A stretch of 52,725 nt of DNA from an uncultured Clostridia bacterium (GCA_944360025.1 CALVTF010000001.1:1-52725); one strand, 5' to 3'. Positions 19,601 through 48,544 are shown, counted from the stretch's first letter. Program-made: numbers and translations. Notes: a model not told the origin generated them from the sequence alone.

Positions 19601-22600
19601 TAGGAATTTATACTTCATATCTCAACATTTTTGATATAACTTTCAATATGAATGGTGGCTATCAAATCACATACGACCAAAATTTTGGTGGAACATATGT
19701 TGGTGGTAAAAACTATAATGTAACCGATTTTATTGATGAAATTACAAAAGGCGATGAAATTTTGTTAGATTCAAGCGTCAACGCCTTTACTTTCACTGAA
19801 TGTACTGACGTTGCCGATTTTGAAATTGTTGATAATAATACTTTCAGCGTGGCTCACTCTCAAGAGACTATAGCAGTGGAAATTAAGGCTGAACATAATA
19901 TTACAGAAAACTTGCTCACAATAGCAAGCGGAACAAACATATATAGAGGAATAACTTTAGAAGGAATAGGAGATGCGAATTCTCAAATTTCATTATCAAA
20001 TGAATTAGAACTTGCTGGCTTTACTTACACAGTTGGAACAGGTGTAGGTGAAGGATTAAATGGTATTGCGACAAATTATATTAGAATTGATTTAGCAAAT
20101 CCTATTACTGTTAACACTGCTTTGGGAACGCAAGAAGAAATTGAATCTTTCTATATAGAATTAACAGAAAGTGAAATAACAAAACAATCAAGAACGCTTT
20201 ATAGTTTCTTCTTCTCGCTTATGTTCGCTCCTTCAAATGATATAGCAGAAAATCAAACAGTGGCTTTCCGTGAAAGCGAGAGTATAGAAGGAATTAGATA
20301 TTCTCAAAACACTATCACTCTCAACCTTAGAGAAGGAAGATTGTATGATATGTTGGTAGCAAATTTCAGTAATAACGGAACAAACTTCAGAACAGGAATA
20401 GATAGTTTTGCATTTGAAAATGGCACAACAACATACACAATAACCTTGCCAAATGTTGGCGAAAGAAGAACAGATTATGTTGAAAACATTACTATACAAT
20501 ATAGATTCAATAATAATATAATATATAGATTTGGTTTAAACTATATTTTCGCGATAGAACCAAATGTTGAAATTTCTGATAACTATCCAACTCCTAACGA
20601 AACAGCAAATATGCAAGAAGAATATGTTGATAATAAAACAACAATAGAAGATTTCTTCAACACTTCTGCAAGTTTCGCTAAGGCGAATGCAAGTTCAAGA
20701 CTTAATGTAACAAGGAAGGATGCAGATTTAGATAATCAATATAATTATGACTATAATTTAGACATTACAACTATAACTAATGTTGTGTTGACAGTGAACG
20801 GCACAACTTCTTATAATCAACCAACTCCGTCATTAAGTTCAGGAAGCCTTAGTGAAGAAGGTGGTGTAATTAGATTGCCAGATCTTGATTTTGCCTTTAC
20901 TCTTAATAACACAGGAACCATAGGACGTGTAATGTTTACATTGCAAGTAAATAGTGTTACCAAAACTTACACCGTTATTGTAAATAATAACAACACTGTT
21001 ACTATTGAAACAAATATGATAACAAGAGTGGATAATTACGAAGAAGTCTTTGCAGAAGATTTATCTACATATGATTCAAACAAATTATTTAGTTATAATA
21101 GACTTTTTAAATATCAACTTTTAAACAGTGCATCTGGGACCTATTTTGTTCGCTTTGATGCGCCTATAGGAAGCAACCCATTAATTAGAGAAGTACAAGC
21201 AGGAAGTACGGCAGAAATTATAGTTGACTTAGGAGACTCATATAATAATTATACCTATAATGGTATATACTCTGACTATGCTTCTGCTCTTAGTGGTGCA
21301 AACCCATCAAGTTGGACGCAAATGTTTGCTTATCAACCTCAAATTACAAATAGAATAGTGCTTTTATATGCTGGATATGAGGTTAATAACGATATTGCTG
21401 ATATTCGACTTTCAGAAAGAATTAATCCAAAATTGACATATACTATTAAAGATGACGCAACCTTAAATGATTTCTATTATTTGAGATTTAACAAAGTTGA
21501 TGATCCAACAGATTATGTAACAATAAGCCATTCTTTCCAAGAAATCACAGGGCAATCTGTGACAGACACTCTTGACGCAAGCCTTGAAGGATATTATTAT
21601 CAAGGGGCATATTTAACTCAAGCAAATGCTGAAAATGCCGAGGCAAAAGTAACTAATATATTTGAAGTAGAACCTTCTTTAAGTGAAGATGGTGGACTTG
21701 GTGAATACAAAGAGTTGGGTGAAGTTTCATTTAGCCAAAACCAAGTTGGAGTTACCTCTCAATATCATGTTGGTTATGTTTTGACTAATGGCGATAATGG
21801 TATTGTTTATGAAAACAATATCAACAATGTCGTTGCAACCAATAGTTCTTATCGTTTACAACTTAATGTTCAATTTGAAGTAACTTCAGATGCTTTAACA
21901 CATTATGAAATTTTGGAAGTGGCAGATGGACTTACAAGCATCTATAATTTCCCAAATCTTGGTATTAGAGATGCGAAAACAGGCAATCTTTTGACTGCAA
22001 ATGATGTTGGAGAAAACAGAAGAATCGACCTTGCAATGTATGGTTTTGGTGATGCTCAAATTATGGCAAATTCTGATGATCCTTTAGAACAAGAAGCATG
22101 GCAAATCCATAATTATCTCATAAACGAGACTACTTATAACACCGGAATCAAACCAAGATATGGAGCGGTCTTAAATGGTGGTGTTATTGGAACAGACGAA
22201 GGTCAAACACAAGACTCAAACTATGCATCTTTAAACGCGGGAACAGATTATGGCGCAAATTATCAAATTTTACCTAGAGGTGCGGCTGTCAATGGAAACT
22301 TCATTATGCTTAGAATTACCTACACAACTTTCCTTGACAAAGACCATACAGAAGAAGGTAAAGTATCAGTTAGTGCAAACCTTAGATTCCTAATTATGCC
22401 TTCTTATGACGTTGAATTTAGATCCTCTTCGGAAAGCACACAATATTCAGATGCAATAGTCGAAGATATGCTAATCGGCGGGGAAAACGTTTCAGTAGCA
22501 ACAAATACTGCTGGAAATCCATATATCATAACAAGAGCAACGAATTCAACTTCAATTGATAGAACTCAATATCTTTATAAAAATTCAACTTCAACAGATA

Positions 22601-25600
22601 CCTATTATCCAATTTGGAGAGCAATGCTTGGAAGCGACAATCAAGGTTTTACTTTTAGTTATTCAATTCCATACAATGGTTCACAAGCGGAATATAATAG
22701 TTATTTCTCTGCAATAGATACTAGTGGCACTGGTTGGTCTGAAGATTCAACCTCTTCTGACAAGACTCACTCACCAACAACCTCAAATGGCGAAATTAAG
22801 TTCACAGCGGGAACCGTTAGTATTGGTGACAAGAGTTATTATATTGATGCTGTTGACAGTTTCGGCTATCGTGCAAGAATTTACTTTAGAATTGAATCGG
22901 AAATAAATCCTGTTATTGCTCACACAAATGTAACAACTGTAACAGAAGGAAACGAGGCTGAAATTGGCGCGACTTACAACACTTCAACCTTTGCAGGTGG
23001 AACATTAAATAATGTAACCTCAGTATCAGGTGGTGGGCAAGAATTAGCAAGTTCTTATCAAAATTGGGCTTATGATTATTCATATACCATTCAAAATGCT
23101 GATGGTAAAGGCGATGGTGTTCAAATTATTTTGGGATATGCGACAAAAAATGGCAATAAGGTCCCTATAACAGAAGATATAGAATTTCATAAAGAAAAAA
23201 TGTTTGAAATTGTTTATGCATACACCGCTTCAAGCGCAACGGGTGGCACAACAACTACTATTACATATGCAACTTCAGTTTTTGATAAAATTCCTGAGGA
23301 GACAACAAGTTATAATGTTTATGTCAACTATTTAGGTAATGATAGTGATGGCGCAGAAGTTATTAAAGAGATTTTAGAAACAATTATTAAAGAAGAAGGT
23401 GCTGAAGAAAAAATTCAAGCATGCATTGATAATGCCAACGAAGGCTTTGTTTTCGGACTTCAAGATATTGCTTCAAAAGCAATTCTCGCTCCTAATGGTT
23501 ATTTGCAAGGAACAACAACAAATCCAACATATGGTTCGTCAGTTGCTTTGCAAATGACAATAAGTGGATTATATGCTAATGTATATGATTCAAATGTTAT
23601 ACCTGCAATGAATGAAGCGTCGTTTAATACAGAATTCAACGCAGAAGTTGAATCAAATGTATACGATATTAATGTTGCAAGTGTTTGGTTTGAAATAGAT
23701 GGTGATATTGTGTTTGCCGACTTAGGTGGCGATGGCACTTATGGTAATAAGACTGAAACAAGTATTCATAATGAAAAGAAAAAACTAGTGACGAGTTCAG
23801 AAACAAACGGCGGTTATGTTTATGAAGACGGAACAATTTCTGAAGTTGTAACTTCTGGTGATAGTGATGGAGCAGGTTTCAAAATACCTTATTTCCCAGG
23901 CAAGTATTATGGCGAAAGTACAACACTTGAAAATGTTGTTATGGTTGTAAACTTTGTGTCAAGTACTGCTGGGGATGCAATTTCGCTTAATAGTGAATCT
24001 ACAGAAATTGCTCAAGTTCGACAAACATTGACAATTCAAAGAGCAGATTATGGCAATTTAGTGACTCAAAACTTTATTGATGACGACAGTATAACAATGG
24101 CCGACTTTAATACTACAAATAATTCTGAAGCATCATCTATTACTGTTACAAATGATACACTAGAAATTGAAATAAGTGCGGGTGGCTCTCTTGAATATGC
24201 AATTGTTAGTGATAACGCAAGCCCGACAAATGATGATTATAAACCATTAACCAACAATGAAAATTATGCTCAAAGAGAACAAATCAGAATTTCAAAAACA
24301 AGTGATTTAACTTCTGGAGTTGATTTAACTTTAGCATATGACGTTTATATTAGAAATGCTAGTGAAGGTACAGATTATAAAGTTAAATATTTCGGAAAAG
24401 AACTTTCATCAAATGGTGTGAAATATGATATTGAACTACAAACATTTAACGAAAATAATGGCTTGAAGTTAAATATCGTAGACGTCGACGAATTGAACTC
24501 TTCTGGTTATGCAACTAGATATATTTACACAATATCAAATGTAACTTACGGAGAAGAGGCAAGTGCCACAACCGAACATTATCAACAAACTGATTCAATT
24601 AGACTTTACCCTCATTTCCAATCAATAAGTGCTAATAGAACTTCAGCACATGACTATATTGTAGATGATTACTATAAAGTGACAACAGAAACCGGAACAT
24701 ATTATGTTATTTCTCCAACAAGTTGGGCAGGTCAAAATGGAACGGCTCAAGATGAAGATAGTGTTTCTGATTCAGTTATCTATAATCCATATTTCCAATA
24801 TCCAAGTGATGACACAGAAATAGGAACTTGGAATAATGAATATAGAATAGCAGAAATGCCATATATTTTCTCATATGAAGTGGTGGCAGGTGCAACCATT
24901 GATTCTATGGGAACAATAACCACAAACGAAGATTTCCGTATTCAATCCGACAACATTATGGTTAACGTTTATATGCGAGTTTCAGGTATCGATGGACTCT
25001 ATAATGATCCAAATGGTATACGTTTGACAAGCACACCTTTGACATTCTATTTAAGAAATTATGCTAATAATGGAACCACAGTTCAAAGATTAGGAAGTGA
25101 TATTACAAATGGAATTTATGGAATTGGTGCAAATGCTAAAGGCACAGGTCCAGATAATTCATTAGTTATTCTAAATGACGGAGATAAGGTATATGCAATG
25201 GGACAGGCTAATGTTGGAAACATTCTCATTGGTGATCCAACAACAGTTTCAAACACATATTTAATTCCAACAAATGAACCATTTGTGTTTGAAGACAATT
25301 TTGAAAAAACAACAGAATATAGAGATAATCCAAACAATCCAACTTCTAATAATGAATTTAGAATTATAAAACAATCGTCAAATTCTTCTTATATGTATCG
25401 TGGAAATCTTGATTCTTACACCTATACAACAGCGGGCGTATACGAAAGTATGTTCATAGAGTCATATAGATATTTAGGAGTTGAGACCACCGGAGAAACA
25501 GGTTCATTTATTTACTATTCAGCATTCAAAGCACAGATAATTGTTTATAACTCACAAGTACCAACAACTTATTCGGCTGCATATACATTAGGCGGAGAGG

Positions 25601-27861: not shown

Positions 27862-29312
27862 TGGATGCTTGGTTTTGGGTATATGTTTGCTCGTGGTTTA
27901 TTAATCTTCTCCTCCTAATTTCGATGATATTCTTAGAAAGAAGAAAGTTTACTTCTATTGTTTGTTGGATGACTGTTTTAACTGTGCTTCCTGTTGTTGG
28001 CTATATCTTTTACATTGTTATGGGGAACGGGCTTTCTTATAGAACTCGTAAAATGATAAACAAACATAAATTATACGAACTTGACTACAACGAAGAAATA
28101 AAAAACATTCTTGCCATGCAGGAAGATTTAAGAGAAAAACTTGTTGAAGATGCAGGAATTATTAAATGCTGTTATAATCTTGGAAGCATTCTTTGTCCCG
28201 GAAACAAAATTGAATTTTATCGCTGGGGAACAGAAAAAATCTCCGCTTTAAAGAGAGATTTATTGAATGCTAAAGAAAGTATCAATATGGAATATTACAT
28301 TTTTGCTGATGACGTGGCTGGTAAGGAAATTATGAATATTCTAATTAAAAAGGCAAAAGAGGGTGTTAAAGTGAAATTTATCTTTGACTCTATCGGTTGT
28401 CTAGGTGCACCAAGACGCTTTTTTAGAAAACTTAAAAAAGCAGGCGGAGAAGTTGCGGAATTTTTTCCACCTTTTGGACATATTCGTATGATTAACCTTA
28501 AAATGAACTATCGTAATCACCGCAAAATTGTGGTTATTGATGGAAAAATTGGCTACACAGGCGGAATGAATATTCGTGATGACCATATTTACGGCACTAA
28601 GAAGAAATGCACACCTTGGAGAGACGCCCATCTTCGTATGGAGGGAAGCGGAGTTTATATTTTGCAAAATATCTTTCTTAACGATTGGCGTTATTGCAAA
28701 AAAGAAGAGAAAAAACCAGAAGAATATGTTGAAGATGGCTATTTTCCAAAAACAAAAGTTGTTGGGGATACAAGTTTGCAAATTATCTCTTCTGGTCCGG
28801 ACAGCGACATGCAGACAATTAAAGATTGTTATATCAAACTTATAACTAATGCTGAACGTTATGTTGTTATTGAGTCACCGTATTTTGTGCCAGATGAAAG
28901 TTTTATGTCGGCTATAAAAATTGCCCTTGCAAGCGGTGTTAAAGTTTGCATAATAATTCCACAAAAACCCGACCACAAGGCTATTTTCCATGTTTCCATT
29001 TCTTATCTTCAAGAATTAGTGCAAATGGGTGCGGACGTTTATCTTTACAAAGGATTTATGCATGCTAAAGCACTTGTTGTAGATGACGATAAAATTTCTA
29101 TTGGTACTTGCAATACTGACAATCGTTCTTTTGCTTTAAACTTTGAAAACACAGTTGTTATGTACTCCAAGGAAATTGCTGGGAATTACATTAAAACTGT
29201 ACAAGAAGATATTAAAAATGCTATAAAAGTTGATAGCCAATACTATAAAAAACGTAGATGGTACACAAAATTTTTACAAGCGGTTTATCGTTTAGGCTCC
29301 CCTATTCTTTAA
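27861..29312 (+). CDS. cls: cardiolipin synthase (phospholipase D superfamily)
   Basis: 483 aa with two N-terminal TM helices and two HKD motifs (HRKIVVIDGKIGYTGGMNI; HAKALVVDDDKISIGTCNTDNRS). Its ATG overlaps the TAA of the giant gene (TAATG, 27859-27863). Confidence 0.93.
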   Translation: MDAWFWVYVCSWFINLLLLISMIFLERRKFTSIVCWMTVLTVLPVVGYIFYIVMGNGLSYRTRKMINKHKLYELDYNEEIKNILAMQEDLREKLVEDAGIIKCCYNLGSILCPGNKIEFYRWGTEKISALKRDLLNAKESINMEYYIFADDVAGKEIMNILIKKAKEGVKVKFIFDSIGCLGAPRRFFRKLKKAGGEVAEFFPPFGHIRMINLKMNYRNHRKIVVIDGKIGYTGGMNIRDDHIYGTKKKCTPWRDAHLRMEGSGVYILQNIFLNDWRYCKKEEKKPEEYVEDGYFPKTKVVGDTSLQIISSGPDSDMQTIKDCYIKLITNAERYVVIESPYFVPDESFMSAIKIALASGVKVCIIIPQKPDHKAIFHVSISYLQELVQMGADVYLYKGFMHAKALVVDDDKISIGTCNTDNRSFALNFENTVVMYSKEIAGNYIKTVQEDIKNAIKVDSQYYKKRRWYTKFLQAVYRLGSPIL

Positions 29313-38641: not shown

Positions 38642-39028
38642 ATGAACGTTAAGAAAAAATTTGGAGATAATGCTAATTTAGTTTGGAAAGATAGAAAAAG
38701 ATATTTAGGTATGCCTATATCTTTTACTAGATATTATCTTATTAAAAATGGCGACGTTTGGTTTAAAACCTTTAGAGACGTTGGACTTTTCTCTACTCAT
38801 ATTGAAGAAGTAAATTTATATCGTATGTATGATATTTCTCTCTACCAATCTTTTTGGGACAAGATTTTTGGAACGGGAACAGTAGTTTTATATAGTAATG
38901 ATGAGCGTTCCCCAGAACTTGTTTTAAAGAGTATTGCAAAACCTTTCCAAGTTAGAGATATGTTTTCCCAACTTATTGAAGAACAAAGAAAAGCAAATGG
39001 CGTTCATGTTGCAGAAATTCAAGGATAA
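38642..39028 (+). CDS. bacterial PH-domain (bPH_2 / YdbS-YdbT-like) protein
   Basis: 128 aa. The pattern RYYLIKNGDVWFKTFRDVGLFSTHIEEVNLYRMYDISLYQSFWDKIFGTGTVVLYS resembles the bPH_2 fold signature. GGAGGG RBS. Confidence 0.55.
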   Translation: MNVKKKFGDNANLVWKDRKRYLGMPISFTRYYLIKNGDVWFKTFRDVGLFSTHIEEVNLYRMYDISLYQSFWDKIFGTGTVVLYSNDERSPELVLKSIAKPFQVRDMFSQLIEEQRKANGVHVAEIQG

Positions 39029-39050
39029 CAGGCATTGCCTGTTATTTTTT
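39027..39050 (+). terminator. intrinsic terminator overlapping the stop codon (near-twin of 34236..34256)
   Basis: TAACAGGC ATT GCCTGTT followed by ATTTTTT. The stem begins inside the TAA stop (39026-39028). Confidence 0.7.
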
Positions 39051-39100: not shown

Positions 39101-39135
39101 AAAAAGAAAATATACCACATTTGGTGGTATATTTT
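39101..39135 (-). terminator. terminator downstream of tRNA-Ala
   Basis: 12-bp stem AAAATATACCAC (39107-39118) / GTGGTATATTTT (39124-39135) with a 5-nt loop, followed on the minus strand by CTTTTT. Confidence 0.6.
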
Positions 39136-39140
39136 ATATT

Positions 39141-39217
39141 TGGTGGAGATGATCGGATTCGAACCGATGACCCTCTGCTTGCAAGGCAGATGCTCTAGCC
39201 AACTGAGCCACACCCCC
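39141..39217 (-). tRNA. tRNA-Ala (anticodon UGC), CCA encoded
   Basis: Reverse complement is GGGGGTGTGGCTCAGTTGGCTAGAGCATCTGCCTTGCAAGCAGAGGGTCATCGGTTCGAATCCGATCATCTCCACCA. It folds as a cloverleaf with anticodon loop CTTGCAA (TGC), the G3:U70 alanine identity pair, and T-loop GGTTCGAATCC. Confidence 0.95.
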
Positions 39218-39376: not shown

Positions 39377-39577
39377 TTATTTGCAGAAATTGTTGCATCC
39401 GCAGTTAGAGAGTAATAAGAGTAATAAGATTGTTCCACAGTCAACATTGATTCCTTTCATACCGCAACCGCCACAGCAGTTTAAAAGTATGATTAAGAAA
39501 ATGAGTGAGCAGCAATCATTACCGCAGCCGCAATCTCTACCTACGTCACCACAACCTGAGCCTCCAAAAAAGTTCAT
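39377..39577 (-). CDS. 66-aa Cys/Gly-rich hydrophobic peptide, unknown function
   Basis: AGGAGG lies 5 nt upstream of the ATG (reverse complement of 39578-39588). A weak bidirectional hairpin (GGCAT/ATGCC, 39322-39340) flanked by A/T runs lies downstream. 12 Cys in 66 aa, with two Leu/Ile stretches flanked by CG/CC clusters. Confidence 0.7.
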   Translation of the reverse strand: MNFFGGSGCGDVGRDCGCGNDCCSLIFLIILLNCCGGCGMKGINVDCGTILLLLLLSNCGCNNFCK

Positions 39578-39840: not shown

Positions 39841-40422
39841 ATGGAAAAAAATTTATCATTAAAAAGAGCCTTGACAATTTTTGCTTGTATAGCAATGGTT
39901 TTGGTTGCTGGTTTTACACTTGCTGCCTGCGGAGAAACACAAACAAATGATTATATCACACCGGGAACTAACGCATCATTTTCAGGCTCGCCAGACGTTA
40001 AATACAATAATGCTTCAGATTTTACTCTTGTATACAAAGGAAACAATCACTATGAAGCAACAGGTTCGCTTGCCACAATGGATGCTACACAAGCGACAAC
40101 TTGGGGTGGTGTTCAAGAAGGAGCAAAATATTGTGTTTTAAATGTTAAGACAGGAAAAGATGCAACAGGTTATATCGGTTGGAGGAGTGTGGAAGATAAA
40201 GACAAACCTTTTACCGAGGAAGAAGCAACTTCTGACGGTGTAAATGTAAAGAAGACGTCCGCCTCAAACGAGACAAAGAACTATATACTTGCTCTTACTG
40301 ATGGTGTGAATGAAAGATATCCAGATAAACCTATTTGGAGAATACAAATCACTCCAAAAGACTCTACAGAAGAAATCACATACACTATTGATTTTTCTAA
40401 CCTTTTAGGGGAAAACGCTTAA
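39841..40422 (+). CDS. lipoprotein, unknown function
   Basis: Signal peptide with lipobox LAAC (FTLAAC|GETQ). AGGAGGGG RBS. 193 aa. Confidence 0.8.
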   Translation: MEKNLSLKRALTIFACIAMVLVAGFTLAACGETQTNDYITPGTNASFSGSPDVKYNNASDFTLVYKGNNHYEATGSLATMDATQATTWGGVQEGAKYCVLNVKTGKDATGYIGWRSVEDKDKPFTEEEATSDGVNVKKTSASNETKNYILALTDGVNERYPDKPIWRIQITPKDSTEEITYTIDFSNLLGENA

Positions 40423-40552: not shown

Positions 40553-40582
40553 TTGCTTTTTGAAAGTTTTATTTGCTATAAT
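40553..40582 (+). promoter_or_regulatory. promoter of the 7-gene ESCRT-like operon (extended -10)
   Basis: TGcTATAAT at 40574-40582, with a weak -35 TTGCTT at 40553-40558 (18-nt spacer). Lies 33 nt upstream of the GTG start. Confidence 0.55.
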
Positions 40583-40614
40583 TTATTTGAAGTATAGTCT
40601 TTTAAGGAGGAAAG

Positions 40615-41433
40615 GTGGAAGAGGTAATCAAATTTTCTGGCACGAATGAAAAACTTTTTACTCGCAACATAGTTGAAAATGTGACTGAAAAAACAACTCT
40701 AATTGTTCCAGAAACACATAATGCCATTTTGATTTCTGATGGCGAAATGCTTCAAACTCTTCCAAAAGGAAGATACCTTCTTCGCGATTTGGTAGAAATA
40801 AAAAAAGACCAAAAACTTTCGCTTGAAGTTATTTTTGTGAGCAAGACGGCAAAACTTAAACTTCTTTGGGGTACGCCTAACAAAATCACACTTGAGGACC
40901 CTATTTTAAATGAAACCTATAAAATGGGGATGAGTGGAGATTTTGAAGTTCAAGTAGGGGATCCAAGAAAATGTTTTCTATATCTTGTAGGAGCAGAGGA
41001 TGTTTTGACAGCAGATGCTCTTCAAGACCGCCTTATGAGTAAAGTTGTTTCAATTGTGGAAACAGAAGTAGCAAAATTTGTGGCTGAAAAAAAAGTGCTT
41101 TACTCAAATGTTTATCAATATAAGCAAGAAATTGCCCGAAGAATTGTTCCTATTCTCACTTCATCTTTTTCGTCTAGTTATGGAATAACGGTTTATTCTT
41201 TAAATTTTGCAAATATTATCTTTGATGAGGATGATTTAGAACGGCTCAATTCTAAAAATCGAGGAAGCGCCCAAAAAGCACTCTGTCCAAACTGCGGTAC
41301 GATGCTTGAAGAAAATGCGAAGTTTTGTTATAATTGCGGGACTAAAATTAGCGATAAGAAAATTTGTCCAAAGTGTAGGTCGGAAAATTCAGAAGAGGCC
41401 AAATTTTGCAGTATGTGCGGAACAAAGTTTTAA
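40615..41433 (+). CDS. SPFH/Band-7-like protein (YdjI / COG4260 type) with C-terminal double zinc ribbon
   Basis: GTG start after AAGGAGG (40604-40610). The N-terminal ~215 aa follow the YdjI-type pattern (LIVPETHNAILISDGEMLQTLPKGRYLL...; VIFVSKT...LLWGTPNKITLEDP...; FEVQVGDPRKFL-like). The C-terminus has CPNCG..x..FCYNCG and CPKCR..x..FCSMCG. Confidence 0.7.
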   Translation: MEEVIKFSGTNEKLFTRNIVENVTEKTTLIVPETHNAILISDGEMLQTLPKGRYLLRDLVEIKKDQKLSLEVIFVSKTAKLKLLWGTPNKITLEDPILNETYKMGMSGDFEVQVGDPRKCFLYLVGAEDVLTADALQDRLMSKVVSIVETEVAKFVAEKKVLYSNVYQYKQEIARRIVPILTSSFSSSYGITVYSLNFANIIFDEDDLERLNSKNRGSAQKALCPNCGTMLEENAKFCYNCGTKISDKKICPKCRSENSEEAKFCSMCGTKF

Positions 41434-41442
41434 GGAGGAATT

Positions 41443-41856
41443 ATGATTGTTGCATTTTATATTATTGTTTGTGTCGCAATTGTCGGAGTTTCAATATATT
41501 TTCTTGTCCGAGAAATTCGCTCTTCAAAAAAGGAAGGTGGAGAAGGGAAAGAAGGTCGGTCAGTTTTAACAAATAAACGTCAGATTGAACGTTCGGTGCA
41601 AAATATTGAAAGTATGATTGTGCTTGCTGATGGAAATGACACTTTGACGAATAAGTTGGTTGAACTTAAAGATGAAATACGTTTCTTAAATCCTTCAAAA
41701 AATCCAAAAGTAAAAGCAGTCGATGAGAAAATAGCAAACAAACTTGACGATATCAAAATTGAGATTTCCAAAGACAAAGACTCGGAGGCTATCTTTCGTA
41801 TGATAGAGGAAGTAGAAGGGTATTTGTCTCAACGTACAAAGGAAATAGACGCATAA
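41443..41856 (+). CDS. single-pass membrane protein with predicted helical soluble domain
   Basis: 137 aa with an N-terminal TM helix (IVAFYIIVCVAIVGVSIYFLV), then charged helical sequence. GGAGG RBS, 9 nt after the previous stop. Confidence 0.6.
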   Translation: MIVAFYIIVCVAIVGVSIYFLVREIRSSKKEGGEGKEGRSVLTNKRQIERSVQNIESMIVLADGNDTLTNKLVELKDEIRFLNPSKNPKVKAVDEKIANKLDDIKIEISKDKDSEAIFRMIEEVEGYLSQRTKEIDA

Positions 41857-42203
41857 TGAAAAGAGAACTAAAGGTAAGTGACGGAGTCGGTGAAAATGTT
41901 TTAAAGGAATTAAAACTAGGCTACATAAATTTGGCAGATGGTTTTTTTGACCTTGCACAAACAAACTTTGATTTGGTGATACTTGCAGATCCTAAATGTG
42001 CCGACGCGTTTTGGGGGTTAATGCTTGGCAAATGTCATATTCGCAATGAGGACGTATTGCTTACTAATGCCACCTTATATAAAAATGTGGTTTTCTTGAA
42101 AGAATATCAAAACGCTCTCATCTATGCCGACGATGACCAAAAAGCAATATACAACAATTTACTTTCCGAAATTATAAAGATTAATTCGGGCGAAGAATAT
42201 TAG
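41856..42203 (+). CDS. small TPR-like protein
   Basis: 115 aa. GFFDLAQTNFDLVILADPKCADAFWGLMLGK resembles a TPR unit. The same module recurs after the zinc ribbon of the 1253-aa protein (FQEAVKDFDKILALYPKSHEAYYGRLQAK). TAATG overlap with the upstream gene. Confidence 0.5.
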   Translation: MKRELKVSDGVGENVLKELKLGYINLADGFFDLAQTNFDLVILADPKCADAFWGLMLGKCHIRNEDVLLTNATLYKNVVFLKEYQNALIYADDDQKAIYNNLLSEIIKINSGEEY

Positions 42204-42211
42204 GAGGAGAT

Positions 42212-42823
42212 ATGTGGTGGCCTTTTAAAAGAAATAAATTTAAGAAAATTCAGCGTGAGGATTTGGTAAATTCTATTTGTGAACTTGAAAGACAAGAACG
42301 TACAATAGAGGCTGAAATCTTCCAAATGCAAAAAGAAATTGATGCCCTTTTAGATAAAGGCAAAAAAGAAAAAACAGAAGAACTTAAACTTTTTTATGCC
42401 AAAAAGATTAATCATTTAAAAGAGCAAAAATCAAGCACAATGCAAAAAGGTATGTATCTTTTATATAATATTCGCCTAATGAACAAACTTAAAGATGCGT
42501 ATGACAGTAATGCGTTTTATAAAACTAAAACAAAAGTTCCTCTTTCAGAACTACTTGCCGATCAAAAAGGTTTAGCAAAGTTTTTAAATAAAGCATTAGA
42601 AACTCGAATTGCTTCTGAGGACGTCTTAACAAGTGCTGACGATTTGTTCACAGAAATACAAGGTGCATATGATACCAATGAATCCATTTATGGAATGAAG
42701 AAAGACGATGAAGAACTTTTAACTTCCTTTGAAAAGGAACAACAAATTTTGGACGAGCAATCTCTTTACGAAGAGTCGCAAGTAAATAAAACAAAAAAGA
42801 AAAAAATGAAAATGGAGGAATAA
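42212..42823 (+). CDS. ESCRT-III (Snf7/CHMP)-like protein, paralog A
   Basis: 203 aa. Basic N-terminus MWWPFKRNKFKK, a long predicted helical hairpin (ELERQERTIEAEIFQMQKEIDALLDKGKKEKTEELKLFYAKKINHLKEQ...), and an acidic C-terminal half. AGGAGGAG RBS. Confidence 0.6.
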   Translation: MWWPFKRNKFKKIQREDLVNSICELERQERTIEAEIFQMQKEIDALLDKGKKEKTEELKLFYAKKINHLKEQKSSTMQKGMYLLYNIRLMNKLKDAYDSNAFYKTKTKVPLSELLADQKGLAKFLNKALETRIASEDVLTSADDLFTEIQGAYDTNESIYGMKKDDEELLTSFEKEQQILDEQSLYEESQVNKTKKKKMKMEE

Positions 42824-42826
42824 AAA

Positions 42827-43423
42827 ATGGCTTGGTTTAAAAGTAAAAAACAAAAAGAAATCGAACAAAAAATGCTGGTTAAAAGGACGATAAATTCCAT
42901 GGAAAAACAAATTGCTCGTCTTGACGAACAAAAGAAAGTTTTTGTGGAAGCGGCAAAGAAAGCGAAAGAAAAAGATTTGGAACCTCAATTTAATTTGGCA
43001 CTTTCTGGTTATCGAATGACAGTTCAGCAACAAAAAAGAGCCCAAGAAATGCTCTTAAATTTTGAGATAACCGCTCAAATGCGTGACGTGACCATGATGA
43101 CAACAGAATTTTTGCGTAGTATGAGTTCTATTTCTAAAGAAATGAGTAAACTTGCAGACGCTAAAGAATTTGAAAAAATCCAGGCTCAATTTGAAGAAGC
43201 AATCACAGCAGTAGAAACTCAAACGGACCAAATGGATGCTTTTATGGAAATGAGTCAAGAGTCATTTAGTCAAGCCGGCAAAGCAAAAGATGGCAAAGAC
43301 ATTTCTAACGAGGACTTTGAAAAATATATTATGGAACAAGCAGCAAATGATGAAGCATCAAGCGAAGATATAGACAAGGAAATTGAAAAACTTAGAAAGA
43401 AAATAGAGGAAGAAGCAAAATAA
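42827..43423 (+). CDS. ESCRT-III (Snf7/CHMP2-like) protein, paralog B, with MIM1-like C-terminal helix
   Basis: 198 aa. MAWFKSKKQKEIEQKMLVKRTINSMEKQIARLDEQKKVFVEAAKKAKEKD...RMTVQQQKRAQEMLLNFEITAQMRDVTMMTTEFLRSMSSISKEMSKL...FEKIQAQFEEAITAVETQTDQMDAFME aligns helix-by-helix with my memory of CHMP2A/Vps2. The C-terminus is acidic and ends EDIDKEIEKLRKKIEEEAK. Confidence 0.72.
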   Translation: MAWFKSKKQKEIEQKMLVKRTINSMEKQIARLDEQKKVFVEAAKKAKEKDLEPQFNLALSGYRMTVQQQKRAQEMLLNFEITAQMRDVTMMTTEFLRSMSSISKEMSKLADAKEFEKIQAQFEEAITAVETQTDQMDAFMEMSQESFSQAGKAKDGKDISNEDFEKYIMEQAANDEASSEDIDKEIEKLRKKIEEEAK

Positions 43424-43441
43424 TTTTTCTACGGAGATAAT

Positions 43442-44569
43442 ATGGAAGATATTGAACTTCTAAACAATACCTTTGACCTTTATATGAAAAAGGGGAAGGA
43501 GGCAAAAGAAAAAGGAAATTACGCTCTTGCAAAGCGTAATTTTATGCTTGCTGGCGAGACTATGATGAAGATTGCAAAAGTAAGTCAAGGCAAGTTAAAA
43601 GAAGTAAGACTTAATCGGGCGAAGCGAATTGTCGAACTGTCAGAGCGTATAGGTCTAGAAAAAGAAAAGAAAAAAGAGGAAAAAGGTGAAGATGAAGAGG
43701 ATGAGGTAAAAAAATGGCAACAAGCACAGATTCCTAACATTCATTTTTCGGATGTAGCCGGGCTAGATGACGTTAAAAAAGCAATCAAGATTCGAATGAT
43801 TAATCCAATTCTTTACCCTGATAAGTATAAACTTTACAACAAAAAAACAGGCGGAGGAGTGCTTTTGTATGGACCTCCGGGAACAGGAAAAACCATGATT
43901 GCAAAGGCTATTGCTTGCGAAGTTGGAGCCAAATTTTATGCTGTGAAAGGCTCAGATATTGTTTCCAAATGGGTGGGCGAAAGCGAGCAAAATATCAATT
44001 CTCTTTTTGAAGAAGCAAATAAGCAAGACCGTTCCATTATTTTTATTGATGAAATGGACAGTCTTTTAGGAAAACGTGGACAAGATATTCATAATGACAA
44101 ACGTGTCAATGAATTTTTACAACAAATTGATGGCTTTGCTGGTCGAAACCCTAACCTTTTACTGTTGGGTGCAACCAATAGACCTTGGGATATAGATTCG
44201 GCCGCCACTCGTTCAGGTCGTTTTTCACAAAAGATATACATACCACTTCCTGATGAGAAGGCAAGAAAGTTTATGTTAGAAAAAAATATGAAAAATGTGC
44301 CGGTTTCTAAAAATTTTGATATTGACAAGATTGTAAAACAAACAGAACTTTATAGCGGGGCGGACATAGAAGAACTTTGCGACCGTGCAAAAGACGAGCC
44401 TCTTCTTAAAGCGATTGAAACTGATAGTGTCATAGAGGTAACCAATAAAGATTTTGACAATATCTTAAAAATTTTCCCGCCAAGTGTAACAGAAAGCGAA
44501 CTTAAAAAATTTGCAGATTATAACAATGAAATTGATAGTTTGATTAAAAATAGAAGAAAGAAAAAGTAG
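43442..44569 (+). CDS. Vps4-like AAA ATPase (meiotic clade) with N-terminal MIT-like domain
   Basis: N-terminal ~75 aa form a three-helix MIT-like region (KGKEAKEKGNYALAKRNFMLAGETMMKIAK...RAKRIVELSERI), followed by an acidic linker. Walker A GPPGTGKT (43871-43894), pore loop SKWVGESE, Walker B IIFIDEMD. ATNRPWDIDSAATRSGRFSQKIYIPLPDEKAR compares with Vps4 [25 protein letters not shown]. Confidence 0.82.
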   Translation: MEDIELLNNTFDLYMKKGKEAKEKGNYALAKRNFMLAGETMMKIAKVSQGKLKEVRLNRAKRIVELSERIGLEKEKKKEEKGEDEEDEVKKWQQAQIPNIHFSDVAGLDDVKKAIKIRMINPILYPDKYKLYNKKTGGGVLLYGPPGTGKTMIAKAIACEVGAKFYAVKGSDIVSKWVGESEQNINSLFEEANKQDRSIIFIDEMDSLLGKRGQDIHNDKRVNEFLQQIDGFAGRNPNLLLLGATNRPWDIDSAATRSGRFSQKIYIPLPDEKARKFMLEKNMKNVPVSKNFDIDKIVKQTELYSGADIEELCDRAKDEPLLKAIETDSVIEVTNKDFDNILKIFPPSVTESELKKFADYNNEIDSLIKNRRKKK

Positions 44570-47500
44570 ATGAGAGAGCGAATTTGTAATAATTGCGGAG
44601 GCAAAAAATATAAAGAGATAGGGCAGAATATGGTGAAATGCTTGTTCTGTGGGACTATCTATGTCGATGAATATGCGAACAAGGAAGAAGAGATATTGAT
44701 TGTCCAAGCATATGAAAAAATTCGTGATTTCAAATTTCAAGAGGCAGTAAAAGATTTTGATAAAATATTAGCACTTTATCCAAAATCGCATGAAGCGTAT
44801 TATGGTAGACTTCAGGCTAAAAATAAAGTGATTTATTTCAACAGCAAGGAAGGAAATAAGCGCTATCCATCTTTTTTTGGAAAAGAAATTCCAAACTATT
44901 TTGAAGATGAAGATTTTAAAAAAGCAGTGGAATTTGCACCTAAAGAGATTGCAGAAAGTTACAATGAACAAGCAACACGTGTAGAGAAAATCCGTAATCA
45001 CTTTTTAAATGATGCCACGAAATTTTCTTGCGACGTTGTTTTAAATATTAAAGAAAGAACTTCAAATGCCGAAAAAATAATTTCCGCATTAGAAGAAAAA
45101 AATCTTAAACTCTTTTTAAGAGAAGATATAAAAAAGCAAAAGAAAAATATTGAAGCCTTTACTTTTCAGGCTATAAACACAGCAAAAGTGGAAGTTTTGC
45201 TGGTGGAAAATGTAGACGCGTTGCTAGAACCGAAAATTAGAAATCTTTATCAAAGATTTTTATATCGAATTGCCATAAAAGATAGATTTCCTTCAAGTTT
45301 TGTTGTTGTTTATGATGACGAAAATGTGCCTATAGATGAAATTGAAAAGGCTTTTCCAAACTTAAAAAAATTGTATTCTACAAACGATAACAACTTTTCT
45401 TTTGACCTTGCAACATTTGTGAAAAGTGCAACTGAGAGAAATTACAACGAGCAAATTGGTCTAGAAAAAAGAGAAGTGGAAAGTGCCACTCCAATAAAAA
45501 AAGAAAAAGTGGAGATTGAAGCGGTTGAGCCGACAGAACTAGGGCATTATAACGTTGAGAATGTTCCATTATCTGAGAAAAATAAAGTTAAGTGGATTTT
45601 TTCTAGTATAAAAAATGGTGATTTTCAAACTGCTGAAAAACTTTTGAAGGAAGAAAAAGATAAAAACGAGGCAAGCGGTGAATTATATTTTGCTTCTCTT
45701 CTTTGTGAAAGAAAGATAAAAACTGAGGAAGAGTTTTTCTCAGATATAGAAAATTTTAAAAACAAAGAAGAACTTGAAAATGTTTTAAAATATTCTTCCA
45801 CTGATTTTGCAAATGACTTTGTAAACAAATGGGAACAACTCATTGTTAAAGAAAAGGACGTAGATTATTACTTAGAATATTTGGAGTTTTTGGCACAATA
45901 TAAAAATTCTATGCATGACGAATTTATTAGAGAGGCCGAAAATTTAGCGATTGAAACATTAAATGAGGACTTAATTAATGCCGTTTTAAAATGTTATAAT
46001 CCTACTGACGTAGACAAGTATACAAATTTTTATTTTCAACTTGCACAAGAATCAGGTGATGAAAGTTATTATACAAAGATATTAGAACTTGATGAAGGTC
46101 ATGCTCAAAGTTTATTTGCTATTTTTATGAAGAACTTTGACACTGTGGAAGAAAAACTTTCTTATCGTGATGGAAAAGCGTTAGAGGACGTTTTAAAATA
46201 TTGCGAAAAAGAGCGTCGTAGCGGATTTTTAACAGATTTAATAAATCTTATTTGTGAAGTTTCCTATTATGATATTAAAAAAGCCGAAGAACAATTCGAC
46301 TTCTATCTTTCATATATAAACGATGAAGAGATTTTGCAAAAAACTCTTATAAATTTGGCAACAGATTTGCAAACTAAAGGATTTTTTAATTTAGCAGAAA
46401 AATATCTGACACTAGCGATTAAAAATGATAAAGAAAACGCCGAACTTTATTGGCAACTTATTGCAATAAAAACGCATTGCCATAGCGAAAGTGAACTTTT
46501 AACCACTTCTGTTAAGATTTCAGATATGGAAGATTGGAAAACTCTTTTAAATTTTGCAAGTGACCAACAGGCAGAAAAATATAGCCAAATCGTCGCAAAG
46601 GCGAATATAAGTAGCGCCAAAAAAGTTTTTCGCCGAGAACTTTTAGATAAAAATGTTTTAAAAGAAAAACTTAGAGAATTTCTAATTAGAAATGACAAAG
46701 TTTTAAATGAAGCGGAGGATAAGGCTTTAGTCAAATATTATAGACAACAATTTACCGCTTTTGAGAGTTATTTTGATAAAATAAATAATGCTAGAACTTT
46801 CGAAGAATATGACGAAATCTTCCAAAGAATTTTTGACCGTATCGACATGATGGATTTGACGATTGACACTTCTGTTAATGTTGCCAAGATAAATACCAAA
46901 AAAGATAATTTAGAAGTATTGGAAAAAGAAGCGAAAAAAAGAGATGATAAATACCTCTCAACCATTGAGGAAGAAAGGCGAATAAAAAAACGCAAAGTAG
47001 TTTTATTTTGCTGTCTTCTTCTTGCACCTATGCTTCTTGTTTTATTGTTTTTGATTTTAGTTATTGCCGCTCCTAAGGATATGTATATGGTATTCACACA
47101 GGACGGAGTTATTATTTTTACCATTCTTTCTGTTATTCTAGGACTAGGTTGTCTTATTTACAATGTGATTAAAAAAACAGGCGATAAAAAGTGGAAGGTT
47201 GCAAGGTATTGTATAGTTATAATTGGTTTTGTCAATCTTGCATGCCTGCTTTTTGGATTTTATATCTATCCGCCTGAGATAGAAATCTTGAATGCTAATG
47301 AGTTTAATGCCATTGTTCACAATGCGAGTTTTGTAGATATAAAAATAGAAAATGACATTGATTTGGGGGATATAGGTTGGGCACCTGTGGATTTCTATGG
47401 CGACATAGAAGGAGAAAATCACAGAATTTTCAATATAAATTTCAAAAGCAAGGAAAATTTTTATGGTTTGTTTGATGAATTCGGTGGAAATGTGGATAAC

Positions 47501-48331
47501 TTAACCTTTGAAGTTTTGGAAAATGACTATGAAAATGTCACTCGATTTGGGGTTATTGCTTTAAATAATAATGGAGAAATAAAAAATTGTCATGTGATAC
47601 TTTCTACAAATATTTTGTCCACAACTTCTGATTGTTTGATTGGAGGTGTTGTCGCAAGTAATGGTGCGGGAGAAGTTTCAAATGTAACATTTGAGGGCAA
47701 TTTGAATATAACCTCAAATGGCAATGTTATTGCAGGCGGTCTTATTGGTGAGACTAGAAGCGAGTCGGAAATTAAGGAAAATTCGGTTGATTTTACGGCT
47801 AACTTTACCTTTGAAAATGGGTCCCTTCAATTTGGCGGACTTGTTGGAGAAAATTTGTCGACAATAACGACTTCAAAAGCAAATGTCAACTTTAATATTC
47901 AAGGGAATTTAAGTAATCCTTTAATAGGAGGGCTTGCAGGAAGAAGTAGAAAATCTATCAATAACTCCTATGCAAGCGGAATTTATAATTTGAATTATGT
48001 GAATGCAACAACAGGAGGACTTATTGGTCAATTTTCTAGGCGACATGAAAAATTGGAATATTGTTATCAAAATATTGACTTCCAAAATGTTGGCGAAGTG
48101 ACAGGCGCTTTAGTTGGAAATTTAAGAGAGGGAGAAGTTCGCTCATGTTTTGCTGTTGGTACCATGTCAAATTTGCTTGGAAGTAAGGGCGTTAACGAGG
48201 GTATTGCTCCAACTCCTCAAAATTGTCAAATTTTTGTATCAGCCGATGAAGTTACAAATACATTTGGTTTTTCGACAGAAATTTGGAATTTAGAGGGTAT
48301 TCTTCCAACTCTTATTTGTTTAGAAGGTTAA
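44570..48331 (+). CDS. 1253-aa multidomain protein: N-terminal zinc ribbon, TPR-like/helical cytoplasmic region, 3 TM helices, extracytoplasmic GLUG-motif repeat domain
   Basis: ATG lies directly after the TAG of the ATPase gene. Zinc ribbon CNNCGG..x..CLFCG, then a long helical region. TM helices at roughly nt 46997-47270. The C-terminal ~350 aa carry repeated GLUG-type motifs (LIGGVVASN, IAGGLIGET, QFGGLVGEN, LIGGLAGRS, TTGGLIGQF, VTGALVGNL). Confidence 0.75.
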   Translation: MRERICNNCGGKKYKEIGQNMVKCLFCGTIYVDEYANKEEEILIVQAYEKIRDFKFQEAVKDFDKILALYPKSHEAYYGRLQAKNKVIYFNSKEGNKRYPSFFGKEIPNYFEDEDFKKAVEFAPKEIAESYNEQATRVEKIRNHFLNDATKFSCDVVLNIKERTSNAEKIISALEEKNLKLFLREDIKKQKKNIEAFTFQAINTAKVEVLLVENVDALLEPKIRNLYQRFLYRIAIKDRFPSSFVVVYDDENVPIDEIEKAFPNLKKLYSTNDNNFSFDLATFVKSATERNYNEQIGLEKREVESATPIKKEKVEIEAVEPTELGHYNVENVPLSEKNKVKWIFSSIKNGDFQTAEKLLKEEKDKNEASGELYFASLLCERKIKTEEEFFSDIENFKNKEELENVLKYSSTDFANDFVNKWEQLIVKEKDVDYYLEYLEFLAQYKNSMHDEFIREAENLAIETLNEDLINAVLKCYNPTDVDKYTNFYFQLAQESGDESYYTKILELDEGHAQSLFAIFMKNFDTVEEKLSYRDGKALEDVLKYCEKERRSGFLTDLINLICEVSYYDIKKAEEQFDFYLSYINDEEILQKTLINLATDLQTKGFFNLAEKYLTLAIKNDKENAELYWQLIAIKTHCHSESELLTTSVKISDMEDWKTLLNFASDQQAEKYSQIVAKANISSAKKVFRRELLDKNVLKEKLREFLIRNDKVLNEAEDKALVKYYRQQFTAFESYFDKINNARTFEEYDEIFQRIFDRIDMMDLTIDTSVNVAKINTKKDNLEVLEKEAKKRDDKYLSTIEEERRIKKRKVVLFCCLLLAPMLLVLLFLILVIAAPKDMYMVFTQDGVIIFTILSVILGLGCLIYNVIKKTGDKKWKVARYCIVIIGFVNLACLLFGFYIYPPEIEILNANEFNAIVHNASFVDIKIENDIDLGDIGWAPVDFYGDIEGENHRIFNINFKSKENFYGLFDEFGGNVDNLTFEVLENDYENVTRFGVIALNNNGEIKNCHVILSTNILSTTSDCLIGGVVASNGAGEVSNVTFEGNLNITSNGNVIAGGLIGETRSESEIKENSVDFTANFTFENGSLQFGGLVGENLSTITTSKANVNFNIQGNLSNPLIGGLAGRSRKSINNSYASGIYNLNYVNATTGGLIGQFSRRHEKLEYCYQNIDFQNVGEVTGALVGNLREGEVRSCFAVGTMSNLLGSKGVNEGIAPTPQNCQIFVSADEVTNTFGFSTEIWNLEGILPTLICLEG

Positions 48332-48353
48332 AATTATAAAAATTTTTGAAATT

Positions 48354-48390
48354 AAAAATATAAACGACAAACTTGTCTTTATATTTTTTT
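48354..48390 (+). terminator. candidate terminator of the 7-gene operon
   Basis: Interrupted AT-rich stem AAAAATATAAA-GACA / TGTC-TTTATATTTTT with one bulge, running into a T-run. Confidence 0.45.
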
Positions 48391-48544
48391 GATTTTATTT
48401 GATTTAATTTAAAATAAGTGTTAAAATATACGTCGAAAACATTTTGTTTTCAATTTAAAGAAAAAAATAAAAATTTTCATATATATTAATTGTTGTTTAG
48501 TCTTTTGAATAAAAATATTAGATGACTTAAAATTAAGGTGTGTT

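Follow-up and report, generated by a model that had tools for sequence, protein, structure and literature searches.

Whether bacteria possess an ATP-driven counterpart of the ESCRT machinery, in which polymers of ESCRT-III subunits are paired with a dedicated ATPase, is the question raised by a seven-gene operon in a DNA stretch of 52,725 nucleotides (nt) from an uncultured Clostridia bacterium (GCA_944360025.1 CALVTF010000001.1:1-52725; this whole stretch is called the window, and positions are counted from its first letter). The genes, named g1 to g7 here, lie on the + strand between positions 40615 and 48331. According to reviews, the pairing of ESCRT-III with an ATPase is restricted to the archaea and the eukaryotes, and bacteria appear to lack a Vps4-like ATPase, so that the regulation of their ESCRT-III-like polymers is an open question (2025 review, PMC7619361). 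Scattered divergent Snf7 homologues have been reported in bacteria, as have MIT-domain Vps4-like ATPases in five bacterial phyla, Firmicutes not included, where the ATPase is paired with a protein carrying TPR repeats and six transmembrane (TM) segments and snf7 is described as "displaced" (Ravi et al., 2024, PMC11237479). Full-text literature searches found no published description of a bacterial operon combining Snf7 with a MIT-AAA ATPase. The first-pass annotation of the window had proposed a candidate bacterial ESCRT-like system in an SPFH/zinc-ribbon context, and this proposal is sustained here by the link of g5 to Snf7, the MIT-AAA composition of g6, conservation in the best 80 related genomes and recurrence in other phyla. 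The operon probably encodes a bacterial ESCRT-like membrane-remodelling module, the likeliest role of which would be to repair or maintain the cytoplasmic membrane when the envelope is stressed; it might also act in scission, during division or the release of vesicles.

The argument begins with g5 (42827-43423, + strand, 198 amino acids (aa)). No direct match to g5 was found in Pfam, NCBIfam, PADLOC or the PDB, and its close homologues are all unannotated. Shallow profiles of g4 and g5 built from close homologues (>=75% identity) likewise gave no match against the PDB, so that the Snf7 link of g5 becomes visible only with a diverse family. Such a family was obtained by a profile search of 1.84 billion representative proteins, which returned 346 clusters at E values up to 0.001, with members linked to g5 at E = 1e-15 to 1e-77. 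Ninety-nine full-length members, 21-48% identical to g5, were aligned (alignment A4); 16 of the 99 individually matched Pfam Snf7 in a collinear manner (best E = 1.4e-9), and no family other than Snf7 was matched by more than one member. When compared with the PDB, the A4 profile retrieved CHMP2A at E = 2.7e-5 over the whole ESCRT-III core (8-151 aligned to 5-144), followed by CHMP3 and CHMP1B. Planctomycetota relatives of g5 carry precomputed PF03357 annotations or give weak direct Snf7 matches. In Pfam neither g4 nor g5 matched PspA_IM30 (PF04012), which is also missing from the list of the 25 families most often matched by the 99 members (36 families matched), and the family is therefore assigned to the Snf7 branch and not to the PspA/Vipp1 branch. 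A Snf7/PspA profile comparison had been suggested at first pass for this protein; it leads through the family to Snf7, CHMP2A and CHMP3, with PspA_IM30 absent from the families listed. Judged by its family profile, g5 is a predicted Snf7-family ESCRT-III protein and not a PspA-type one.

The modelled structure of g5 is consistent with this assignment. Its AlphaFold2 (AF2) model, with a predicted local distance difference test (pLDDT) score of 72, contains helices at residues 7-48, 52-107, 112-148, 161-172 and 176-197, and the chain's first quarter carries a net charge of +8, its second half one of -14. The predicted layout thus matches that of ESCRT-III, with a helical hairpin, alpha4, alpha5 and a C-terminal helix, a basic N-terminus and an acidic C-terminal half; the same layout had been read from the translation alone, and the five modelled helices, the charge asymmetry and the family profile reaching Snf7 and CHMP2A agree with it. 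Foldseek was used only as soft evidence, in the form of enrichment of ESCRT-III entries among top matches: 10 of the top 50 for g5 fall within the ESCRT-III superfamily (CHMP1B, CHMP2A, CdvB, Asgard ESCRT-IIIB, Vipp1 and PspA), all at E > 0.3. Both ends of the protein carry family-wide motifs. The N-terminus MAWFKSKK follows the consensus MxxFKSK kept across the family, and the C-terminus forms a putative helix, DIDKEIEKLRKKI, resembling the MIT-interacting motif 1 (MIM1). The pattern D-x-x-I-x-x-x-L-x-x-[IL]-[RK]-K-x-L stands at the extreme C-terminus in 60% of 266 distinct family tails versus 7% of shuffled tails. The MIM1 consensus is (D/E)xxLxxRLxxL(K/R), with a spacing reportedly described in 2007 by Obita and by Stuchell-Brereton, and we take the family tail to coincide with it at five of six positions, the arginine alone not being conserved.

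Domains of the g5 type also occur as the N-terminal 180-190 residues of larger fusion proteins. These include fusions to FtsK/SpoIIIE-type translocases (P0297, P0309, P0314) and to RuvB-like AAA proteins, some with a C-terminal NERD nuclease domain (P0306, P0308, P0317, P0361); three g5-type fusion proteins also give weak direct matches to Pfam Snf7.

Directly downstream of g5, g6 (43442-44569, + strand, 375 aa) encodes one classical AAA cassette with a C-terminal helix (Pfam AAA 5e-42, AAA_lid_3). Walker A (GPPGTGKT at 144), Walker B (IIFIDE at 199), the pore loop KWVG at 176, and the motifs ATN at 244, NRPW at 246 and RSGR at 257 are all in place, suggesting that the AAA+ cassette is catalytically intact. 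The second region of homology is of the RSGR and not the RRR type. The motif set is presumably mixed, in that we take SKWVGESE and NRPW to be Vps4/katanin-like and RSGRF to be Cdc48-like. For the N-terminal domain, a profile was built from the first 90-100 residues of 19 orthologues; seven of its ten PDB matches were MIT domains (chitin synthase MIT, E = 0.002; VPS4B, E = 0.035), and Pfam MIT was matched in four of the 19 orthologues, with a best E value of 2e-4. Residues 5-362 of g6 align to positions 5-366 of the 370-position NCBIfam CdvC model, which is the top model for g6 only when the MIT region is included; among orthologues and distant relatives of g6, the CDC48 score equals or exceeds the CdvC score in most cases. 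Vps4_C gave a sub-threshold match (E = 0.0032, 17.8 bits, cut-off 21.3), in the PDB search this stretch likewise aligns with the end of p97 D2, and weak or faint Vps4_C matches are recorded for relatives in two distant loci, L086 and L088.

Taken together, g6 is predicted to combine a MIT-like domain with an AAA cassette in a Vps4/CdvC-like architecture and context, around a Cdc48-D2-like core. The first-pass annotation had called it a MIT-domain ATPase of Vps4 type: the MIT-like N-domain, the intact cassette and the CdvC-like layout stand, and membership of the Vps4/meiotic clade does not follow from them, with the core scoring at least as well against Cdc48-D2. A designation of g6 as a Vps4 orthologue was not adopted, since its AAA core prefers CDC48 and the PDB search ranks Cdc48-type chains first. 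Variants of the ATPase were also seen. In eight loci from divergent Clostridia (L058, L059, L061, L065, L068, L075, L077 and L080) the g6 orthologue is extended at its C-terminus by about 110-150 aa, a region with the conserved pattern ...EFxV...Y.C...W.SE.L....G.Y.VE.F..., and locus L060 encodes a tandem two-cassette version at 2364-4553.

Immediately upstream of g5 lies g4 (42212-42823, + strand, 203 aa), which the first reading had taken for a second ESCRT-III protein. Its AF2 model (pLDDT 70) has helices at 15-52, 56-106, 111-154 and 164-202, with the same spacing as in g5. Foldseek ranks CHMP2A-CHMP3 first (probability 0.93, E = 0.14), and among the top 50 matches 22 are ESCRT-III, Vipp1, PspA or CdvB chains, none individually significant. 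Compared by hhalign with the g5 family, 19 non-redundant g4 orthologues aligned collinearly from end to end at E = 6e-4 with a probability of 28%, a value that was 0.9% with a shallow g4 alignment. No Pfam or PDB sequence match was found for g4 and its 19 orthologues, nor an NCBIfam or PADLOC match for g4; PspA_IM30 is not among the 14 families listed for these orthologues. Searches of each family's hidden Markov model against the sequences of the other (g4/g5) were not significant, and g4-type proteins from other phyla, including one in the Sumerlaeota locus L091, gave no Snf7 match. The predicted fold and the weak profile-profile match thus speak for the earlier call, and the Snf7 profile match that it would imply is missing. 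We did not adopt g4 as a g5 paralogue or Snf7 member, given the hhalign probability of 28%, the failed cross-searches and the lack of Snf7 matches in other phyla; g4 is a conserved g5 partner whose fold is probably ESCRT-III-like, as its model suggests.

Related loci were collected with a degenerate g5-family peptide pattern, which identified 161 species-representative genomes, and the best 80 of 161 were analysed by tblastn. All 80 loci come from Clostridia metagenome-assembled genomes (MAGs) of Candidatus Caccovivens, Candidatus Coproplasma and Christensenella-like lineages, with g5 53-97% identical. Presence across the 80 loci was 80 for g5, 79 for g6, 77 for g4, 74 for g1, 67 for g2, 66 for g7 and 57 for g3, and absences fall mostly at contig ends. 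Close relatives keep the order g1-g7, and only they retain the flanking ABC transporters in synteny; in divergent genomes g1, g4, g5 and g6 remain together in altered order, with a g7-like gene between g5 and g6. Because the genes are found across 80 related loci and the core stays together after flank synteny is lost, g1-g7 are real genes and not chance open reading frames (ORFs). The pairing of g5 with g6, separated by 18 nt in the window, is kept in 79 of the 80 loci and in the more distant loci L081, L086, L088, L089, L090 and L091. Conservation is uneven along the operon: at matched divergence g4, g5 and g6 are 70-80% identical and g7 35-40%, and outside close relatives g7 is 21-40% identical. 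Had the genes never been co-located in related genomes, the first-pass reading would have lost its footing; they are co-located across the best 80 Clostridia loci.

This pattern of conservation bears on the possibility that the operon is mainly a scission device, which would complete division (abscission) or pinch off vesicles, like Cdv in TACK archaea, and would not serve repair. At the same divergence g4, g5 and g6 (70-80%) are conserved about like the flanking ABC-transporter genes (65-72%), Pfam and NCBIfam scans found no stress regulator in the operon, and some g5 relatives are joined to translocases of the FtsK/SpoIIIE type, enzymes that work where septa close. Moreover, archaea and eukaryotes use a Snf7-type (CHMP2/3-like) protein together with an ATPase as their scission configuration (PMC7619361; PMC7615534). 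However, the nearest bacterial precedent for the SPFH/zinc-ribbon partner encoded by g1 is the Psp stress response, no division genes lie nearby, and the topology required, namely action at negatively curved necks, is without support here. We regard scission as an unlikely main function and retain membrane repair or maintenance as the preferred role.

Beyond Clostridia, contigs of 28-69% GC were examined that carry distant g5-family members, 23-35% identical to g5; the named relatives belong to Planctomycetota, Phycisphaerae, Candidatus Sumerlaeota and one MAG labelled Methanoregulaceae. In L086/L085 a Snf7-like gene is followed by a 375-aa MIT-AAA that is 42% identical to g6 over its full length. 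Pairs of a Snf7-like protein and a MIT-AAA also occur in L088 and L089, the latter with a second MIT-AAA, and L081 encodes two proteins of about 200 aa (one of the g5 family, the other an unassigned helical protein) with two MIT proteins, at least one of which is a MIT-AAA. The Planctomycetota locus L090 contains a pair of helical proteins, each about 200 aa long, together with a MIT-AAA, a Snf7-like gene, another MIT-AAA, a protein of 640 aa and a kinase. The Sumerlaeota locus L091 comprises a DZR+Band_7 protein, a g4-like protein, DZR/Sel1 kinases, an AAA protein, a Snf7-like gene and a MIT-AAA 40% identical to g6. Proteins combining Band_7 with a zinc ribbon are present in L082, L087 and L091. 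In L082 a Band_7_1 protein, two small genes and a Snf7-like gene lie beside rpmG-secE-nusG, and L087 combines Band_7_1 plus zinc ribbon with four g5-family paralogues, two MIT-ATPases, a RuvB-like ATPase and a SNF2 helicase. In L084 the gene after the Snf7-like one encodes a MIT domain joined to an AAA of SpoVK type.

The MIT profile of the g6 orthologues matches the N-termini of all paired ATPases in the distant loci (E = 1.7e-3 to 4e-26). The recurring unit is a Snf7-like protein plus a MIT-domain ATPase, often accompanied by an SPFH/zinc-ribbon protein. Fusions of a MIT-like N-domain to a SpoVK/CbxX-like AAA (Walker A GNPGTGKTT) were found at L084 1090-2043 and L087 5537-6745, and because these fusions also adjoin Snf7-like genes, the constant partner is the MIT domain and not a specific AAA type. 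The gene 3' of the ATPase in the Planctomycetota loci encodes a soluble protein of 580-640 aa and not a TPR + 6TM protein, which indicates that these loci are not simply the dyads of Ravi et al.

Some features are peculiar to the distant loci. Ser/Thr kinases recur in those outside Clostridia (L088 6918-8207, L090 11625-12800, L091 2565-6500 and 9954-13961, L085 1-1272), some with RDD, double zinc ribbon, Sel1 or FGE-sulfatase domains, an association that recalls the archaeal "Main" and Halo_FHA ESCRT loci (PMC10936438). One g5-family member, P0430, is 55% identical to a Planctomycetota-type protein and lies on a 5.5 kb contig of the MAG labelled as a Methanoregulaceae archaeon; it is either a binning error or a real archaeal relative, and it bears on the origin of the family.

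The distant loci and the fusion proteins could also point to a conflict/defence or DNA-linked system, in which a Snf7-like polymer and an AAA ATPase would target invading elements, or the integrity of the membrane, in the manner of abortive infection. Such a system might account for the fusion of g5-family domains to RuvB-like AAA with NERD nuclease and to FtsK-like ATPases, for the RuvB-like ATPase and SNF2 helicase in L087, for the Ser/Thr kinases in Planctomycetota and Sumerlaeota loci, and for sub-threshold matches of g6 to models of the anti-phage ATPases IetA/IteA. Those matches are slight, however: g6 scores 115 bits against IteA, where the cut-off is 510, the PADLOC IetA matches are generic AAA ones, and no IetS-type protease partner is encoded in the operon. 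PADLOC gives nothing beyond noise for g1-g5 and g7, and within the Clostridia clade the operon is single-copy and syntenic among housekeeping genes. No relatives were found in viral contigs. Because of the housekeeping flanks, the lack of viral-contig relatives and the lack of PADLOC support, a defence island is unlikely in the Clostridia lineage, and we rate this explanation of the operon as highly improbable beside membrane remodelling.

Several results weigh against an ESCRT-like interpretation as such. For g5 there is no direct Pfam Snf7 match, and its link to Snf7 is transitive via the family; g4 has no sequence-level link to Snf7. Foldseek searches with the AF2 models of both, each with a pLDDT of about 70, gave no match at E < 0.001. 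The CdvC score of g6 (213 bits) is far below the equivalog cut-off (650), its AAA core alone scores 213 bits against CDC48 versus 203 bits against CdvC, and its top 60 PDB matches are to Cdc48/p97, VAT, AFG2/SPATA5, NVL and Rix7, with no Vps4 chain. The predicted MIT domain of g6 has moderate support: the best E value is 0.002, and Pfam MIT is matched by no more than 4 of the 19 orthologues. The FtsK and RuvB-NERD fusions of the g5 family hint at DNA-linked or conflict roles, and L082 has SPFH and Snf7-like genes without an adjacent ATPase.

Carried to its end, this line of argument would make g4 and g5 generic coiled coils and g6 a Cdc48-like unfoldase of some other substrate (e.g., g7 or another membrane protein), the likeness to ESCRT being convergent or spurious. 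The absence of direct Pfam matches for g4 and g5, Foldseek E values that all exceed 0.1, a g6 core closest to Cdc48-D2 and the capacity of coiled-coil composition to inflate weak profile matches are all in keeping with it. Against it, 16 independent family members match Snf7 collinearly, down to 1.4e-9, with no other family recurring; the CHMP2A match at E = 2.7e-5 spans the whole ESCRT-III core; the terminal motif of the g5 family has MIM1 spacing; and the MIT domain, not a particular AAA type, stays linked to the Snf7-like gene across phyla. We consider a system unrelated to ESCRT quite improbable, and the accessory proteins are discussed below on the basis of an ESCRT-like module.

The first gene, g1 (40615-41433, + strand, 272 aa, GTG start), had been annotated as an SPFH/YdjI-type domain with a double zinc ribbon, a call borne out by Pfam (Band_7_1 5.6e-13, Zn_Ribbon_1 1.7e-16, DZR 3.8e-11). 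Hydropathy analysis revealed no TM segment, and g1 is a soluble YdjI-type SPFH protein with a C-terminal double zinc ribbon. In B. subtilis, PspA is brought to the membrane by YdjI, a soluble SPFH protein with a zinc finger that is anchored by YdjG/YdjH (Scholz et al., 2021, PMC8581546), and an SPFH/coiled-coil/zinc-ribbon protein is a component of archaeal Meth_adaptin ESCRT loci (Makarova et al., 2024, PMC10936438). With its Band_7_1 domain, its lack of TM segments, its C-terminal zinc ribbons and its position beside genes for membrane anchors and an ESCRT-III-superfamily protein, g1 has the features of a YdjI-type SPFH recruiter. The product of g2 (41443-41856, + strand) has one TM helix at residues 2-20, as the first reading had also held, followed by a helical cytoplasmic tail of about 115 aa (hydropathy); it has no family match in Pfam or NCBIfam and is a probable single-pass membrane anchor.

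The remaining two accessory genes are related to each other. The product of g7 (44570-48331, + strand, 1253 aa) starts with a cytoplasmic zinc ribbon (C6, C9, C24 and C27, in CxxC pairs), followed by about 780 aa of helical repeats, three TM helices at 814-899 (hydropathy) and, at the C-terminus, about 350 aa containing GLUG repeats (Pfam Glug 4.5e-6; GGLxG occurs four times). The C-terminal GLUG region should be extracellular, which would make g7 envelope-spanning. The earlier description of g7 as a zinc-ribbon/TPR/3-TM/GLUG protein thus stands, with a weak score for TPR (Pfam TPR 0.004). Sequence searches of g1 and of the g7 ectodomain against the PDB gained nothing, the C-terminal domain of g7 having no PDB match. 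The product of g3 (41856-42203, + strand, 115 aa) has no Pfam match and aligns by BLASTP to g7 residues 589-677 (E = 6e-9) and 47-84 (E = 0.003), which suggests a free-standing version of a helical module that g7 carries two or more times in its cytoplasmic part. For g3, a free copy of the g7 repeat is a better description than the earlier label "TPR-like".

Beyond domain presence and co-inheritance, a mechanism can be inferred for the module by analogy with B. subtilis YdjI/PspA and with the MIT-MIM contacts by which archaeal and eukaryotic ESCRT-III tails recruit Vps4 (PMC9477494; PMC7619361). The g5 protein, probably with g4, would polymerise on the cytoplasmic face of the membrane via its basic N-terminal hairpin and MxxFKSK motif. 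The polymer may be recruited or organised by g1, docked to the membrane by the g2 anchor and by g7, in a manner comparable to YdjI-YdjG/YdjH-PspA. A g6 hexamer might then dock by its MIT domain on the C-terminal MIM1-like helix of g5 and thread subunits through its KWVG pore loop with ATP, so that the polymer would be disassembled or remodelled. Through its extracellular GLUG domain g7 could connect the module with the cell envelope and serve as a sensor or a positional anchor, and g3, as a soluble copy of the g7 cytoplasmic module, may compete with or bridge the interaction of g7.

The seven genes can reasonably be inferred to form one transcription unit, given their tight spacing, a -10 motif upstream, the lack of internal terminators on the + strand and a hairpin with a T-run 3' of g7. 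As in the first-pass annotation, all seven ORFs were recovered on the + strand, and the spacers, given there as -1 to 18 nt, were recomputed as 9, -1, 8, 3, 18 and 0 nt in order. Shine-Dalgarno motifs (AAGGAGG, AGGAGG, GGAGG, GGAG) precede five of the seven starts (g1, g2, g4, g5 and g6), and the starts of g3 and g7 are translationally coupled. The promoter and leader region (40553-40614, + strand) contains an AAGGAGG ribosome-binding site ahead of the GTG start of g1 and the previously noted extended -10 element TGcTATAAT at approximately 40574-40582, about 35 nt 5' of the g1 start, as a motif match only. This promoter is missing from the listing of a consensus promoter scan because its -35 hexamer is poor, and no Rfam element was found in the leader. 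A terminator scan revealed no terminator-like sites on the + strand inside the operon. The hairpin and T-run that had been noted downstream correspond to a probable intrinsic terminator at 48349-48395 (+ strand), which folds with a minimum free energy of -10.5 kcal/mol (z = -4.26; none of 200 shuffles folds equally well).

The genomic setting is chromosomal and housekeeping, with nothing mobile: neighbours of the operon in the window are nrdD/nrdG, a dUTPase, a bPH_2 protein and two ABC exporters. The bPH_2 (bacterial PH domain) protein is encoded upstream at 38642-39028 (+ strand), and a homologue lies near the cluster in 45 of the 80 related loci, frequently on the opposite strand, probably as synteny only. 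Just upstream of the operon region is a tRNA-Ala (anticodon TGC) at 39141-39217 (- strand), beside which two strong AT-rich hairpins (inverted repeats at 39021-39049 and 39107-39135) were scored as terminator-like on both strands. Between this tRNA and a lipoprotein-like gene (39841-40422) is a 66-aa Cys/Gly-rich ORF at 39377-39577 (- strand), MNFFGGSGCGDVGRDCGCGNDCC...CCGGCG...NCGCNNFCK, which represents either a small Cys-rich peptide or a chance ORF. Farther upstream, a single ORF of 4732 aa at 13663-27861 (+ strand) has no Pfam family at E <= 1e-4 and is directly followed by a 483-aa ORF (27861-29312).

The operon and its relatives in other phyla are a candidate counter-example to the stated absence of Vps4-like ATPases from bacteria. 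What appears new is an ESCRT-III/AAA pair in bacteria with its own accessory set, within an SPFH setting reminiscent of the Psp system of Bacillus as well as of an archaeal variant of ESCRT. We propose, tentatively and with some doubt, that bacteria of at least three phyla (Bacillota/Clostridia, Planctomycetota and Candidatus Sumerlaeota) have a complete ESCRT-like system, unrecognised until now and homologous to the archaeal/eukaryotic ESCRT-III/Vps4 core, its parts being Snf7-type subunit(s), a dedicated MIT-AAA disassembly ATPase and SPFH/zinc-ribbon recruiters. If it is true, ATP-driven ESCRT-III remodelling was not an archaeal invention, it either predates the bacterial-archaeal split or passed between the domains long ago, and these bacteria perform ESCRT-type membrane scission or repair. 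ATP-driven ESCRT-III turnover in bacteria, the age of the ESCRT-III/ATPase partnership and the role of SPFH proteins for ESCRT-III polymers are thereby made testable. The host lineage is an abundant uncultured gut clade, and the system may matter for envelope biology in the microbiome.

Among known systems, eukaryotic CHMP2/CHMP3 with VPS4 offers the closest solved structures for the g5 family, with CHMP2A as its best sequence match, followed by CHMP3, and g5, like CHMP2, appears to end in a MIM1-spaced helix, the type that binds the H2/H3 groove of the VPS4 MIT domain (PMC9477494). In contrast to that system, identity is only about 15%, the arginine at MIM1 position 7 is not conserved in the g5 family, g6 has no beta-domain insertion or Vta1 partner, and other ESCRT complexes are not present. 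Similar to the archaeal Cdv and Meth_adaptin loci, the operon has a Snf7-type gene directly upstream of an AAA gene whose product, about 370 aa long, has a single cassette and a MIT-like N-domain; it shares with Meth_adaptin an SPFH/zinc-ribbon component and, through g5, may share with archaeal ESCRT-III a C-terminal helical docking motif. Unlike Cdv, it resides in a bacterium of the class Clostridia and is without wH/ESCRT-II-like, CdvA and adaptin-appendage proteins, the partners here being a zinc-ribbon/helical-repeat/3TM/GLUG protein and the g4 family, which has no Snf7 signal. With the CdvC model g6 reaches 213 bits, far short of the 650-bit cut-off, and its core resembles Cdc48-D2 as much or more.

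The B. subtilis pspA-ydjGHI (samGHI) operon resembles g1-g7 in encoding a soluble SPFH protein that ends in a zinc finger (YdjI there, g1 with its zinc ribbons here) together with membrane proteins, which anchor it in B. subtilis and may do so here. YdjI brings an ESCRT-III-superfamily polymer to the membrane, a role that g1 may have by analogy. The two systems differ in that the polymer is of PspA type in B. subtilis and predicted to be of Snf7 type here, sigma-W-type regulation is not evident for the operon, and a dedicated MIT-AAA ATPase is present here and not in Psp. The bacterial dyads of Ravi et al., in turn, also place a MIT-AAA beside a large protein with TPR-like repeats and TM segments, as g6 is followed by g7. 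Different from those dyads, g7 has three TM segments and a GLUG ectodomain instead of six TM segments, and a Snf7-like gene lies directly beside the ATPase, both in this operon and in the examined Planctomycetota and Sumerlaeota loci.

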